DNA of 23,616 nt from an uncultured delta proteobacterium (lineage in GTDB: Bacteria; Desulfobacterota; Binatia; Bin18), in assembly GCA_963733195.1 (NCBI GenBank), contig CAVTCR010000031.1, forward strand, positions 1 through 23,616, read 5' to 3'. This document shows positions 1 through 23,581 of the stretch, in pieces (the first letter of the stretch is position 1; the number at the start of each line of letters is the position of its first letter). The position numbers were made by a program, and so were the translations under genes. Under the pieces are notes generated by a model, which ran no database searches, had not been told where the DNA came from, and saw only the letters and a program-made list of their open reading frames with translations.

Positions 1-1550
1 CGGTCGGTGTCATTCGTGCTCCTAGTCGCTTCGCCATGCTGGCGGAAAAGAGCTTACGTCCAGCATCCGCTAGGCTCTGTGATGCCCGACACACTTTAAG
101 CACTTCCGCAAGCTGGAGCTGATCGAACAAGTCGATCTCCGCGCTAGCGTGTCAGACTCCCAAGCAGCGCAGCCAGCGAGGACTCAGTCGGCTCTTCACG
201 CCAGAGCGCTTGCAGCCTCAGCGATTTCACTCGTCGACCACATCGAGAGCGTGATTCGGCCACCATCCGCGAGCGTGGCCATGCGGGTGACGGAAGCCGA
301 CAGCTCACGGAAGTTCCCTGCCCACACTGCCGTCGGTGCGGTCGCAAAGGCGCAGGTAGTGCTCCCGTCGCTTCTTTGTTAAAGCGGACGGTGACACCGT
401 TCTCCTGCGCGAAGCGCGCCAAGCTCATAGCTCCAGGTTCGGCTCGATGTCCTCGCGCCGCTCAACCAGCGACGGCAGAAAGAACGTCCACAGATTGATG
501 CGGGCAAACGAGATCCTCGCGAAACCGCCCAGCCTTGTACCGCGTCGCGGAGATCACGGTTGGTTCCGGCAATCAACTGAAAGTCGCTCGCGACCTCTCG
601 GTCACTGCCAAAGGGAAAGAACCGCTTTTCTTCGACCGCTTTGAGCAACATCGCTTGCTCATCGAGCCCCAACTCGCCAATCTCATCCAAGAAAATAAGT
701 CCTTTGTCGGCTTTACGCAGCAAGCCGGCACGGTCCGCCATCGCTCCGGTAAACGCCCCTTTGACATGCCCAAACAACGTGGACATCGCGCTCTCGCCAC
801 GCAGCGTCGCGCAATTGACTTCGACGAACTCCCCAGAAAGCCGATGGCGTGCGTGTTTGAGCGCGAAGACGCGTCGAGCCAGGAATGATTTTCCTGCGCC
901 GGTTGGACCAATCAGCAGCACCGGGGCGCGCGAGCGTACGGCGACCCGCTCAATGTCAGTAATCATGCGGTTGAACTGTGCATTGCGCGTTTCAATACCG
1001 GACTTAAGAAAAAGAGACCCGCTCTTCTTGTTCACGTCGGAAACGGGCAGCAATCTGGTTGTACTTGGACAGGTCAAGGTCAATAATCGTGTAGGTGCCA
1101 CTCACGTCGATCCGTTGTCGTTTCGGAGGCGAGGTTTGCAGAGCGGGCAGGAAAAAGACCGTGTTTCCGTTAGCAGGAACATACAAATCTGCGCAACATG
1201 CGTACCGGTGGTGATGTGCATAAAATAGTCTTCGTATGTCTGGATCAAACGGATACCCACGCGCGTAATCGTGGAGGACACTGTAGACCTCTTCAAAATC
1301 CCATGGATCGCGGAGGTCCAGCAGCACCGGTCGCAGCTCGGTTTCTGGTGAGACCTGACGAATATCCGCTGCTCAATTGATCCACCAGACCTTGGTGTGG
1401 TGCGCTGTACAACAATTCAAACCGATGGACCAGCAAGTCCTCATGCTGACACAGCGCCACGCTGGGTCGCCATTTTTCCCATCGCCCTAGCCCTTTTCCT
1501 CCGTTATCAAGCTGCGTTCCGACAAAACCGATGACGACTGTTTTCTTCAT
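1..1550 (-). CDS. rtcR: RNA repair transcriptional activator RtcR (CARF-like sensor + sigma54 AAA+ domain); several frameshifts, 3' end runs off the window
   Basis: Fragments 1293-1550 (MKKTVVIGF..RWEKWRPSVALCQHEDL), 1004-1327 (DPWDFEEVY), 1102-1296 (HITTGTHVAQIC), 379-1101 (Walker A GPTGAGKS, GAFTGA, Walker B FLDEIGE). The C-terminus (IDLFDQLQLAEVLKVCRASQSLADAGRKLF) can be read down to base 1. Divergent from rsr/rtcBA. Confidence 0.93.
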
Positions 1551-1698: not shown

Positions 1699-1714
1699 TG
1701 GCACGTCGGTTGCT
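1699..1714 (+). promoter_or_regulatory. Sigma54 (-24/-12) promoter of the rsr-Y RNA-rtcBA operon
   Basis: TGGCAC-gtcgg-TTGCT, an exact consensus match, 48 bp upstream of the rsr ATG and adjacent to a sigma54 activator gene. Confidence 0.92.
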
Positions 1715-1762
1715 CTCTATAACAAAAACAGACGAAAACACAAGGTGAAAGGAACAATACGT

Positions 1763-3362
1763 ATGGCAAACTTCCAGTTATTCCAAACATTACGCGGTGA
1801 AACTCTTACCGTTCGAAACAACGATAGTCAATCAGGAAAACTCCATCGCTTACGAGTATCCGGGCCAAACATAAGCTGAGCACATTACGCGGTGACGGGG
1901 TGCCGCTGAACCAAACTTTTTATGCGTCTGCCGAAGCGCAACTCGAAACCGTGCTTGCGCTTTAACGAAGAAGGTCGAACCCGCCTTTGTCGCCAAAACT
2001 GCCGTGTACTGTCGTGAACAGGGCTTTCTTGAAAGACGTGCCAACACTTTGCTCACTGCCGCACTGTCGGTGAAGGGACGGAATACTTACCAGCAAGTTT
2101 TCTCTCGTGTCATCGATAATGGAAAGATGTTGCGCAACTTCGTGCAGATTCTACAGCAGCCGGGGCTGGTTGGCCGCAAGTCTTTGGGAACGCGCCCGAA
2201 GTTGTTAAGTCCAGAAATGGCTGAACACTGCGAGTGGGAACAGTTCCTTGATCGACGCGGCAGTAGGAACAACACCTTCTCTTCGCTGATGTGGTGAAAA
2301 TGGTCCACCCAAAGCCAGCCGATAAGGCACGGAAAGCATTCTTCCGCGTGGCTCATTGGTAAGCCGTATGCAGCAGACGCCTTACCAGGTGACACTCCAG
2401 GCATTTGAGGAATCTCAAAAGTAAGAAAACTACGATGGGTTACCATCAGTACCGTTTCAGATGCTCACTGCGCTTTGATCTGACAGGAAAGAGGCGTGCG
2501 GCCCACGCCGTCGCGGCAAGCTGGGTGGCGGGCAGCGTGCGGATGAACTTGAATACCTTTGCTCGTCATGCAGTGTTTACGGCGTGGACGGAATGGCTGA
2601 CGAGATTGCCGGGTAGTTCCAGGATGCTCAAGCGATCCGCAAGGCGCGCGTATTTCCATACCAACTGTTGATGGCGTACAAAGCAGCGTCCGAGAGAGAT
2701 CCCATTCGTTGTCCGCGAGGCGTTGCACGATGCACTGGAAGTCGCAGTAGAGAATGTGCCCACATATTCAGGACAGGTTGTGATCTGCCCGGACGTGTCA
2801 GGTTCAATGTCATCACCAGTGACAGGACATCGGGCTGGGGGCACGACCGCCGTGCGGTGTATCAAGTCATCAGCTCTACATCGCAGCGGCATTCGTGCGG
2901 AAGAATTCGCAGACAACACTCGTACTGCCGTTTGAAACAATAAGGTCTGTACAGTCCGTCTTAAATCCACGGGATTGGATTGGCATGACCAACGCCGAGA
3001 AGTTGGCGGCAATCGGCGGTGGTGGGACCAACTGTAGCGCACCGTTAGCGTGGTTGAATAAACAGAAGGAACACGCTCATCTCGTCGTCTTTGTTTCAGA
3101 CAACCAATCTTGGGTCGATAACCGCAAACATGGAGCCACGGAGATGATGCGGCAGTGGGATGCCTTCAAGCAGAAAAATCACAAGGCGAAGTTGGTCTGC
3201 CTGGACCTGCAACCATATGGGACAACCCAAACGGCCGAGTGTGAAGATATTCTCAACATCAGAAGATCCAGTCATACCGCTTTCTCCATCATTGATCGCT
3301 TCGCTCGTGGGCAGCTTGGGCCGGAGCATTGGGTAGGTGAGATTGAGGCGGTGGAACTCTAA
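1763..3362 (+). CDS. rsr: Ro60/TROVE + vWA RNA-binding protein (Rsr); heavily frameshifted in this sequence
   Basis: Starts MANFQLFQTLRG after an AAGGA SD. Fragments carry IDNGKMLRNFVQI, GRKSLGTRPK, the MIDAS motif DVSGSM, GGGGTNCSAPL, VFVSDNQSW and the terminal HWVGEIEAVEL. Context matches rsr-yrl-rtcBA. Confidence 0.88.
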
Positions 3363-3373
3363 AGTATGGAATC

Positions 3374-3438
3374 GCGTCCGAATGCTTGTGTGATTACATT
3401 TACCAATGTACAGGATCACACAACTCCTTGTCGGACGC
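3374..3438 (+). ncRNA. Y-RNA-like RNA 1 (minimal Ro-type stem plus hairpin)
   Basis: GCGTCCGA/TCGGACGC terminal stem, CGAATGC...CTTGTCG motif, TTGTGTGAT/ATCACACAA stem, TACATT-tacc-AATGTA hairpin. Confidence 0.75.
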
Positions 3439-3452
3439 ACTTAACAAGCAGA

Positions 3453-3539
3453 GCGCGAATGCTGATAGGACTACATTGGTATACTGGGTTCAATCCCCAG
3501 CCGGTCGTAAGGCCGGAAGTCTTATCGATCTTGTCGCGC
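3453..3539 (+). ncRNA. Y-RNA-like RNA 2 (T-arm plus GNRA-capped acceptor-like stem)
   Basis: GCGCGA/TCGCGC stem, CGAATGC..ACTACAT..CTTGTCG motif, TGATAGGACT/AGTCTTATCG stem, T-arm CTGGG-TTCAATC-CCCAG (3484-3500), CCGGTC-GTAA-GGCCGG (3501-3516). Confidence 0.8.
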
Positions 3540-3548
3540 CAACAATAC

Positions 3549-3678
3549 GCTGGCGAATGCCGGTGGAACTACATCGCTGATAACGAGGTGGACGCGGGTT
3601 CGAGTCCCGCCGGCTCCAAAAAATATGGAGCCGTAGCTCAGTGGTAGAGCGCCGGTTTCACCAACCCTTGTCGCCGGT
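3549..3678 (+). ncRNA. yrlA: YrlA-like Y RNA 3 with a permuted tRNA domain including an anticodon (GAU) arm
   Basis: GCTGGCGA/TCGCCGGT and GGTGGAAC/GTTTCACC stems enclose the anticodon arm (3574-3586), T-arm (3594-3610), loop-closed acceptor stem CGGCTCC/GGAGCCG and D-arm GCTC-AGTGGTA-GAGC. Confidence 0.88.
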
Positions 3679-4403
3679 TGTAGAATGAAACGAGAGGATA
3701 AGTATGATCACACGAACCTACGACGTACTGCACCATGAAGGAATTGCGCCAATCAAGATGTGGACACAAGGCGTACCTGTTGAGGATTCAGCGAAACAGC
3801 AACTAACAAACACCGCTAAGATGCCGTTCATCCATAAGTGGCTCGCTGTCATGCCGGACGTGCATGTTGGAAAAGGTGCAACAATCGGTAGCGTTATTCC
3901 AACCAAGAGCGCAATTATTCCGGCGGCTGTGGGAGTCGATATTGGCTGCGGAATGATGGCGGTTAAGACAACGATCACGGCAAGTGATTTGCCAGATAGC
4001 CTTTCGGTGTTGCGGAACGCGATCGAACGAGCTGTTCCACACGGAAAAACGTTTGGGAGCCGAGATAAAGGTGCGTGGCAGATTACACCTGAGCTGGTTG
4101 ATCAGGCCTGGGAACAACTCCAGCCCCGCTTTGCCAAAATCGTTGAGAAGTACCCGAAACTAGAGAAGACGAATAATTACATTCATCTCGGAACGCTGGG
4201 TACGGGAAATCATTTTATTGAAGTTTGCTTGGATGAAGCGAATGCAGTTTGGTTTATGTTGCACAGCGGTTCGCGTGGTGTCGGTGGAGCAATCGGAAAC
4301 TTGTTCATCGAGCTGGCGAAACGGGATATGCGAACCTGGTTGATCAATTTGCCAGATATGAACCTTGCATATCTGCCGGAAGGAACTGAGCACTTCAATG
4401 ATT

Positions 4404-5386
4404 AGACATTATGCGAAATAAGCTAGAATGGGGTGGTGCTTGAATATAAACGACTGAAAAAAGACCGACGACAAGTGTTGGCGTTGACAGGATTGACCCC
4501 CAAAGAGTTTGGCGTGTTGCATGAGGCGTTTTGCGTTGCCTATGCAACCCTGTACCCAGCAGACAAGACGGCAGAGGGGCAGGTCCGCAAGCGACAGGGC
4601 GGAGGGGGACGCAAAGGGCAGTTGGGCACGACGGAGCAGAAGCTGTTGTTCAGTCTGGTGTATCTGAAGACCTATCCGCTGCAGGCTCTGTTGGGCGCGA
4701 TGTTTGGGCTGAGCCAGTCGCGGGTGAACCGGTGGTTGCAGCGGTTGCTGCCGATTGTGAAGCACGCCTTGGATGAGTTGGGCGTGCTGCCAGGCCGCGT
4801 GCCGGAGCAGTTTGCTGAGCAGGAACGGGACCAGCAGGAAGCCGCGGAGCTGATTATCGACGGAACGGATCGTCGCCGCCAGCGCCCGAAAAACAAGGTG
4901 AAACAGGCCTTGCACTATAGTGGCAAGCACAAAACGCATAGTGACAAGAACATCGTGGTGGTGAATGCGAAGACCAAACGTGTGGGCTATTTGAGTCAAA
5001 CGTATGCGGGGAAAATGCACGACAAAAAGATCGTGGATACCGAACCGATTTGCTATCCGCCCGACACGATCCTGTATAAGGACACCGGTTTTCAGGGGTA
5101 TGAGCCCAAAGTGCGACAGACGCATCAACCGAAAAAAAGCCATGCAAAGGGACGTTAACCCGGGGACAAAAGCGCCACAATCGCAAGCTGTCACGGGTCC
5201 GCGTTCGCGTGGAGCATGCCCTTGCGGGGGTGAAACGCTCCCGCATTGTGAAGGAGGTCTTTCGCAATACCAAAGAGGAATTGTCAGATCTGGTAATGGT
5301 CGTTGCATGTGGCTTACACAATCTCCGCGTGCGTTACCGCAAGCGGCGGCTGCGAATATGAGGAAAAGTTATTTCGCATAATGTCT
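4404..5386 (+). mobile_element. IS5-family (ISL2/IS702-like) insertion sequence, 983 bp
   Basis: Perfect 18-bp terminal inverted repeats AGACATTATGCGAAATAA (4404-4421) and TTATTTCGCATAATGTCT (5369-5386); 3-bp target duplication ATT (4401-4403, 5387-5389). Confidence 0.93.
4433..5361 (+). CDS. DDE transposase (HTH + DDE_Tnp_4-like) in two frames joined by a -1 shift at A-AAA-AAG
   Basis: IIDGTD, YSGKHKTH and DTGFQG in ORF 4433-5158. The -1 frame after A7G (5132-5139) continues KPCKGTLTRGQKRHNRKLSRVRVRVEHALAGVKRSRIV...ACGLHNLR to TGA at 5359-5361. Confidence 0.88.
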
Positions 5387-5930
5387 ATTATGTTGAAGCC
5401 GTCGAATGGGCGCAGGATTTTGCCCGCCTGAACCGGGAAGTGATGATGCACAATCTCATCCAAGCGGTGCGGGCAGTGATCACCAAACCGTTTGAGACCC
5501 ATGTTGAAGCAGTAAACTGTCATCATAATTACGTCGCCCGCGAACATCATTACGGAGAAGATGTATATGTCACCCGTAAAGGGGCAGTACGAGCACGGCA
5601 AGGAGACCTCGGAATCATTCCTGGGAGCATGGGTGCTCGATCGTATATCGTGCGCGGATTAGGAAACGAAGAAAGTTTCTATAGCTGCAGTCACGGCGCA
5701 GGACGTGTGATGTCACGAACCGAAGCAAAGAAACGTTTCACGGTGGATGATCATATTGCGGCGACGCAAGGGATCGAGTGCCGGAAAGACGAAGACGTGA
5801 TCGACGAAACACCAGCAGCATATAAATCGATTGACGCGGTCATGCATGCGCAGCGAGATTTGGTGGAGATCATGTATACGTTGAAACAGGTTGTGTGTGT
5901 GAAAGGGTAATATCAATATAGTTCATCTCG

Positions 5931-23472: not shown

Positions 23473-23483
23473 TACAGTAGTTA

Positions 23484-23568
<85 letters not shown>

Positions 23569-23581
23569 AAGTGAGCGGGCT

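Follow-up and report, generated by a model that had tools for sequence, protein, structure and literature searches.

A complete tRNA look-alike with an anticodon-type arm, an ordinary YrlA-family Y RNA, in a decaying RNA-repair operon

A Y RNA encoded next to the RNA ligase gene rtcB, in the 23,616-nt stretch of DNA analysed here (the window), holds in permuted order all parts of a tRNA-Ile with the anticodon GAU. This raises the question whether it is a reserve tRNA, an intermediate between tRNA and Y RNA, a bait or sensor for anticodon nucleases, or something that its relatives share. Judged from sequence, nothing sets the RNA apart from other YrlA RNAs, and it is a tRNA look-alike, not a spare tRNA, because the permuted shape is common to most of its relatives and the letters of its “anticodon” are variable.

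The family assignment follows from the Rfam model YrlA (RF02553; gathering score 69 bits), which matches positions 3550-3680 of the forward strand end to end with 79.1 bits (E 4.6e-17). Across the window, YrlA and one tRNA are the only Rfam families above their own cut-off. Together with the start of rtcB at 3704, this match bears out the first-pass annotation, which had described a YrlA-type Y RNA adjoining rtcB. Both YrlA motifs as defined in the accessible part of Chen et al. (2014; PMC4201824), GNCGAAN0-1G and YUAY, are present, the former as the Ro-binding motif GGCGAAUG at 3552-3559, inside the terminal stem near the 5′ end, and the latter as CUAC at 3569-3572. The RNA moreover has the near-invariant stem-loops of the T and D arms, which enclose a closed acceptor stem-loop, and it is encoded beside rsr, in this case a frameshifted remnant (1757-3362). 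Relative to the Rfam model, 14 nt (3573-3586) are inserted after the conserved CUAC and before the closing pairs of the tRNA-like domain, for which the Rfam alignment uses the stretch 3′ of the D arm. The hairpin formed here (3574-3586) adjoins in sequence the pairs 3587-3653 and 3588-3652, and the strands of the junction are UACA (3570-3573), zero bases and G3654 (Table 1).

Table 1. Features of the window and, in the last three lines, tandem YrlA copies at other loci (coordinates of the respective locus)
Feature	Position	Strand	Basis or remark
rtcR (sigma-54 activator, RtcR/CARF N-terminus), pseudogene	144..1550	-	At least 3 frames; Pfam, ORF list
Sigma-54 type -24/-12 promoter consensus, upstream of rsr	1699..1714	+	Sequence match; putative function
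rsr (Ro60 orthologue), pseudogene	1757..3362	+	Frames 2/3/2/3; tblastn, Pfam
First Y RNA, plain hairpin resembling YrlB, bearing a Ro-binding motif	3373..3439	+	Rfam YrlB 23.2 bits (gathering 97)
Second Y RNA, partial tRNA look-alike	3452..3543	+	Rfam YrlA 32.7 bits (gathering 69)
YrlA Y RNA	3549..3678	+	Rfam 79.1 bits; RNAalifold on 86 homologues recovers both Y stems
Basal stem	3549-3556/3671-3678	+	Carries the GGCGAAUG motif
Upper stem	3562-3569/3655-3662	+	Ro-type stem attached at the 28/29 break
Anticodon-type hairpin	3574..3586	+	3 bp (3574-3576/3584-3586); 7-nt loop CUGAUAA (3577-3583)
Rest of tRNA-like body	3589..3653	+	Variable loop, T arm, acceptor, D arm
Variable loop	3589-3593	+	
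T arm	3594-3610	+	
Acceptor 3′ strand; A73	3611-3617; 3618	+	
Capping loop	3619-3626	+	
Acceptor 5′ strand	3627-3633	+	
D arm; G26; C27 C28	3636-3650; 3651; 3652-3653	+	
rtcB 5′ part	3704..4402	+	Pfam RtcB profile 1-231 of 426; tblastn
Insertion sequence, 985 bp	4403..5387	+	Perfect 19-bp terminal inverted repeats; DDE_Tnp_4 transposase ORF 4433-5158
rtcB 3′ part	5389..5910	+	Pfam RtcB profile 250-426; tblastn
rtcA (RNA 3′-phosphate cyclase), intact, 340 aa	6042..7064	+	Pfam RTC, RTC_insert
tRNA-Leu(CAG), ordinary	23483-23569	-	
Tandem YrlA copies, locus L095	253-393, 530-670		
Tandem YrlA copies, locus L073	2995-3132, 3146-3285		
Tandem YrlA copies, locus L005	2542-2681, 2762-2898		

The locus follows the known layout rtcR / rsr-Y RNA-rtcB-rtcA. 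Its only zero-mismatch match to TGGCAC-N5-TTGCW in the whole window, which we take to be the sigma-54 -24/-12 consensus, lies at 1699-1714 between the divergent rtcR and rsr. Because of this promoter match, the lack of any terminator-like site on the forward strand between 1400 and 3800, and the start of rtcB only 24 nt past the YrlA RNA, the Y RNAs are most likely cut from the operon transcript. The interval from rsr to rtcB holds three distinct Y-RNA-like modules in succession (3373-3680), the second of which has a T arm and a closed acceptor hairpin and carries neither a D arm nor an anticodon-type hairpin.

The protein-coding part of the operon is largely broken. Pfam recovers rtcR in pieces (RtcR at 1293-1550 and 1004-1327, Sigma54_activat at 379-1101), rsr was traced by tblastn with four Rsr proteins (from loci L063, L068, L011 and L017) and by a vWA_Ro60 Pfam match at 2895-3362, and rtcB is split at 4402/5389 by the insertion sequence, of which diverged copies occur on soil metagenome contigs. 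Since the other 16 kb of the window consist of long unbroken ORFs, these frameshifts and splits are not assembly noise. Contigs from four DNA runs cover the YrlA only in short, low-depth pieces with 0-3 differences and offer no informative joint. The RNA-repair operon thus described is decaying piecemeal, with rtcR, rsr and rtcB broken and with rtcA and the Y RNAs looking intact, and the loss of these three genes makes a function of the YrlA in the present organism doubtful. A second and more decayed rsr-Y RNA-rtcB copy lies at a contig end (L003 1310-1680, i.e., 60250-60620 of contig C29, genome G000); its YrlA is ~90% identical, with the T arm destroyed and C32 and A37 changed, and the middle Y RNA is deleted. 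Beyond these two copies, no further rsr was found in the genome.

Joining 3627-3653 to 3574-3618 yields a 72-nt sequence that ARAGORN calls as tRNA-Ile(gat), with arms of 7/4/5/5 bp and 7-nt loops, and whose MFE fold is a cloverleaf (-35.9 kcal/mol); on the unpermuted window the program made no call at the YrlA site, as expected. The complete circularly permuted cloverleaf noticed in the first pass is hence real as a fold of these letters, and it includes the tRNA positions named there, i.e., U8 (3634), A14 (3640), G15 (3641) with C48 (3593) and A73 (3618) as well as, in the loop, C32 U33 (3577-3578), GAU (3579-3581) and A37 A38 (3582-3583). The anticodon arm has the canonical shape (5-bp stem, 7-nt loop, Y32, U33, purine 37), and its stem is indeed broken between positions 28 (3653) and 29 (3574), at the attachment of the Ro-type stem. 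Folding of the whole RNA as a single sequence favours another structure (-55.0 vs. -47.6 kcal/mol for the proposed fold) and the structural case therefore rests on comparative evidence, namely on homologues: as the arm covaries across 86 of them, chance does not account for the permuted cloverleaf. The module is evidently no copy of the tRNA-Ile(GAU) of its host. That tRNA (contig C62), one of the genome's set of 42 by ARAGORN, shares with it just one 19-nt stretch (17/19), spanning the 3′ strand of the D stem and the anticodon loop, and two exact matches of 8-9 nt.

Homologues were collected from a public genome collection with a pattern of four conserved YrlA motifs and free spacers, which matched at least 121 stretches; after removal of duplicates, at least 146 unique YrlA-type RNAs remained, the window's included. 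The sample thus stems from a single sequence pattern, and related sequences within it are not independent. Classed by the length of the spacer that separates CUA from the T loop, 86 of the 146 among the matches listed belong to a long class (24-26 nt; 25 in the window), 41 to a mid class (16-23 nt) and 19 to a short class (15 nt or less). After un-permuting, ARAGORN called a full-length tRNA in 85/86 long, 32/41 mid and 0/19 short members among the matches listed, in a test that is lenient with its 40 cut combinations per RNA. A stricter picture of the long class comes from a fixed register set from the T arm alone and blind to pairing: among the matches listed, all five arm pairs (27-43, 28-42, 29-41, 30-40, 31-39) are formed in 62 of 86 RNAs and at least four in 77. 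The loop frame is kept to a similar degree (Y32 in 78/86, U33 in 74, A37 in 69, purine 37 in 77 and A38 in 63, among the matches listed). The surrounding tRNA features are present as well, with a purine at position 26 in 84/86 and tRNA-like 26:44 combinations, G46 in 86/86, and a Levitt pair 15-48 that covaries (G:C in 71, A:U in 14 of the 86), all among the matches listed. A complete cloverleaf is consequently no peculiarity of the window's RNA, since the same arm occurs in 86/146 YrlA-type RNAs among the matches listed.

The carriers, among the matches listed, comprise Acidobacteriota, Planctomycetota, Verrucomicrobiota, Myxococcota and alpha-, beta- and gamma-proteobacteria, and Rsr is encoded within 3 kb in 51, and RtcB in 48, of the 53 loci with a hairpin-bearing RNA. 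The nearest sampled loci are distant (YrlA at most 76%, RtcB about 70-79% identical, among the matches listed). A search of 60 related genomes with the Rfam YrlA model gave a single weak match (28.5 bits) that overlaps a real tRNA, so that close relatives yield no homologues. On viral contigs, the same pattern found 13 loci, with a 5-bp arm and 7-nt loop in L129 only; bacterial queries did not find Rsr or RtcB at these 13 loci. Of practical relevance, the Rfam model misses most hairpin-bearing members at its cut-off: only 8 of 21 such RNAs (20 loci tested, within L093-L125) reach the gathering score, and standard annotation will therefore overlook most of them. At L108, the Rfam tRNA model matches with 41.2 bits across 119 nt (604-722), beside or overlapping a YrlA copy.

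Pair counts were made on a MAFFT alignment of the 86 long-class RNAs (A2) trimmed from position 29 to position 28, because full-length MAFFT alignment misaligns position 29 behind a linker that varies by 1-3 nt. Among the matches listed, the three hairpin pairs are 88.3% paired in A2, with changes on both sides in 43, 32 and 48 sequences, and the pairs 27-43 and 28-42 are 98.3% paired, with changes on both sides in 36 and 15. Over the complete structure, pairing in A2 amounts to 96.7% vs. 72.9% in shuffles, 0/500 of which reach 96.7%; the shuffle figures are not probabilities, since the rows are related and the search pattern fixes some columns. Sliding the partners by 1-3 columns drops pairing in A2 to 34-47%. 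Unaided, RNAalifold predicted from the untrimmed alignment the extra hairpin, the two Y stems and the stems of T arm, acceptor and D arm, with compensatory changes in 22 of its 31 pairs. So many pair types per position are hard to explain otherwise than by conserved pairing. The first-pass annotation would have given up its reading had the arm proved unconserved in homologues; instead, the arm is conserved and covaries in 86 of them.

The hairpin as such is not new to the family. Chen et al. (2014; PMC4201824, section 6, accessible text) describe a “V” stem-loop in YrlA RNAs of Rhizobium etli, Pseudomonas fulva and others and equate it with the variable arm; this “V” stem-loop and the extra hairpin of the window's RNA are one element. 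The counterpart of a variable arm would imply that the Y stem itself is the anticodon stem, and the accessible account of the Salmonella crystal (bioRxiv 10.1101/312249), where the hairpin is absent and the Y stem continues the position of the anticodon stem, is in line with that assignment. We nevertheless regard it as improbable for the hairpin-bearing RNAs. A variable arm stands between 45 and 48, 3′ of the anticodon stem, whereas the hairpin lies 5′ of the covarying 42-43, after which a complete 5-nt variable loop N-G-G-U-C (44-48) follows. Its loop has 7 nt with U33 and A37, the same frame as in the 42 real tRNAs of the genome, and ARAGORN takes it as the anticodon arm in 85/86 long-class RNAs among the matches listed. 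From its place 5′ of 42-43, the full variable loop, the purine 26, the Levitt pair and the 7-nt U33/A37 loop, it follows that the hairpin most plausibly occupies the anticodon-arm position, with the Y stem leaving the 5′ strand between 28 and 29. Either the hairpin or the Y stem may stack on 27-28/42-43, and, as the Y stem takes this site in Salmonella, the hairpin could also protrude sideways.

With regard to novelty, the initial claim that YrlA RNAs are not described with a full anticodon arm holds in part: the hairpin had been printed as “V”, which speaks against it, but it was printed as a variable arm, and the Rfam consensus lacks it altogether. The reinterpretation of the “V” stem-loop as an anticodon arm is thus the only possibly new point. 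We did not find it in the accessible YrlA literature, and the words “anticodon” and “variable” are absent from the five of six supplements of Chen et al. (2014; PMC4201824) that were available; the 2018-2020 reviews of the Wolin laboratory may discuss it.

If the arm is that of an anticodon, the triplet GAU could be expected to carry meaning, and the RNA had accordingly been labelled a tRNA-Ile. This identity did not survive the comparison. The 86 long-class RNAs carry 31-32 different triplets among the matches listed, led by GUU (10) and CAU (7), followed by UUU, GAU and GUC (6 each), and 16 of the 86 are unusable as bacterial anticodons (14 A-initial ones other than ACG and 2 of stop type). 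Twenty-five pairs, which are not independent of one another, share at least 90% identity outside the loop. Within them, positions 34, 35 and 36 differ at rates of 0.56, 0.44 and 0.28, positions 32-33 at 0.34 and 37-38 at 0.16, and everything outside the 7-nt loop at 0.10 or less; the triplet is identical in only 6/25. Tandem long-class copies at L005, L073 and L095, all three such loci among the matches listed, also differ in their triplets. The two copies at L095 are 92% identical outside the loop, with the differences mainly in the loop (GUG vs. CAU). Further, the discriminator is unmatched to the triplet in the long-class RNAs among the matches listed. Since the triplet is the fastest-changing part, occurs in 31-32 kinds and is unusable in 16 cases, GAU is very probably incidental and without isoleucine meaning. 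Still, U36 is enriched (52-53/86 among the matches listed vs. 11/42 real tRNAs of the genome), and the triplet and loop are therefore not wholly free. U36-A37-A38 is over-represented in the long-class loops (A2 columns 5-11). In tRNAs reading ANN codons, U36-A37-A38 is the context of the t6A37 modification.

These data also bear on the idea of a stress-induced reserve tRNA-Ile, in which the Ro stem would be excised, RtcB would join 28 to 29, and a decoding tRNA would result once the acceptor loop is opened. The perfect cloverleaf with GAU, A37, A38 and A73, the adjoining RNA ligase gene and a 7-bp acceptor like that of Mycobacterium smegmatis YrlA, which is cleaved by RNase P and receives CCA according to the accessible parts of two sources (PMC4201824; bioRxiv 10.1101/312249), made it attractive. 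Yet the window's RNA shares with a decoding tRNA only the cloverleaf, and has neither a conserved usable anticodon nor a bulge-helix-bulge junction, as its junction consists of 4 nt (3570-3573) and 1 nt (3654) flanking an 8-bp helix. The triplets among the matches listed include 14 A-initial and 2 stop-type ones in 31-32 kinds that differ between close relatives, and the discriminator is not matched to them. Splicing endonucleases are not reported in bacteria, as far as the accessible text of bioRxiv 10.1101/312249 goes. The host, moreover, has its own tRNA-Ile(GAU) with different stems, and its rtcB is broken. We therefore abandon the reserve-tRNA idea as extremely improbable, given fast-changing and often unusable triplets and the missing splicing-type junction.

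A similar fate meets the proposal of a recent tRNA-to-Y-RNA intermediate, caught before the anticodon arm was lost. Although the form is more tRNA-like than the YrlA of Salmonella, an arm that has undergone compensatory changes in at least six phyla is an old and maintained state, and the module is unlike any tRNA of this genome past short conserved stretches; there is next to no chance that it is a young transitional form.

The window's RNA is instead quite probably a non-decoding, complete tRNA mimic of the YrlA family, carried on a Ro-binding stem. A rsr-Y RNA-rtcB-rtcA transcript would start at the sigma-54 promoter, and by analogy with Salmonella, the YrlA would be trimmed from it to about 130 nt. 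Its paired ends would form the stem that bears the Ro60/Rsr binding motif, while the middle would fold as a tRNA body in circularly permuted order, its acceptor stem capped; this body is complete here and in most non-enteric relatives. The 3-bp hairpin with its 7-nt loop would run into two pairs made with the bases past the D arm, with no unpaired base on the 3′ strand. An anticodon-type arm of 5 bp would result, and behind it a variable loop of the normal 5 nt. As the loop frame (Y32, U33, A37, A38) is kept and the triplet is free, the arm would copy a generic anticodon-arm shape and would not decode. Its role is then most likely that suggested for YrlA as a whole, namely to present, held by Rsr, a whole tRNA shape to the tRNA-handling proteins of RNA repair. 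Since rsr, rtcR and rtcB, its partner genes, are all broken in the present organism, the RNA may be without a working partner.

A more specific role could be that of a bait or sensor, if an anticodon-loop nuclease of a toxin or defence system also cuts the YrlA loop. In a sensor, the loop-nicked capped tRNA body with its 2′,3′-cyclic phosphate would activate RtcR and/or be resealed by RtcB; as bait, the uncut YrlA would soak up the nuclease, and an arms race would drive the diversity of triplets. In favour, the loop retains the frame that recognition as an anticodon loop requires while positions 34-35 change faster than any other, all three tandem long-class loci among the matches listed (L005, L073, L095) differ in their triplets, and the RNA lies beside rtcB in 48/53 loci among the matches listed. 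Competitive inhibition of an anticodon nuclease by YrlA was also suggested as a possibility by the authors of PMC7790460, as stated in its accessible part. However, neutral drift in an unconstrained loop would equally give fast change at 34-35, the cyclic-phosphate strand would differ from the natural 5′ half, and the YrlA of Salmonella, which is without such a loop, is not cut according to the same partially accessible source (PMC7790460). We thus consider a bait or sensor role rather unlikely. The wider proposition, that most non-enterobacterial YrlAs are complete tRNA mimics with “V” as anticodon arm, acting as Rsr-held nuclease bait whose cut form goes to RtcR/RtcB, is in our estimate just as speculative.

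For the window itself, these results carry little weight, as it only adds a further YrlA whose operon is decaying. The family as a whole comes into sharper view than in the accessible literature: the tRNA-like domains of most YrlAs would represent a whole tRNA shape, anticodon-type arm included, in which only the triplet is free. A partner of YrlA may accordingly be easier to seek, as something that reads anticodon loops generically, and the link between YrlA, anticodon nucleases, RtcR and RtcB becomes directly testable in culturable carriers.

Among known systems, the closest is the YrlA of Salmonella Typhimurium, which shares with the window's RNA the Ro-binding GNCGAA-type stem, YUAY, T arm, capped acceptor, D arm and Levitt pair as well as the site between rsr and rtcB. 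It differs in that the hairpin is missing from it and that it “lacks the anticodon loop” (bioRxiv 10.1101/312249, accessible text), whereas the window's RNA carries the extra hairpin. The “V” stem-loop of Chen et al. (PMC4201824, as far as accessible) is the same element, assigned there to the variable arm, while here its position, loop and U33/A37 fit an anticodon arm. With the YrlA of Mycobacterium smegmatis, for which RNase P cleavage and CCA addition are reported in the accessible sources cited above, the window's RNA has in common the 7-bp acceptor, followed here by A73. Deinococcus radiodurans Yrn1 is likewise a Y RNA with a T-arm-like hairpin, and Chen et al. note a potential 5-bp “anticodon arm” in the available text; this arm, however, has a 6-nt loop and is differently oriented, with its place between T and D arms, and Yrn1 belongs to another subfamily. 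The circularly permuted tRNA genes known from red algae and from an archaeon resemble the window's RNA in their loop-closed acceptor and paired transcript ends (bioRxiv 10.1101/312249, accessible text). Their transcripts are turned into decoding tRNAs by splicing endonuclease and ligase, whereas the window's RNA is without such a junction and the triplets of YrlA are unconserved and often unusable. Finally, an artificial RNA with a capped acceptor and a tRNA body, nicked in the anticodon loop, is a ligand of RtcR and a substrate of RtcB in the accessible part of the respective report; YrlA differs from it by an intact loop and by the added Ro stem.
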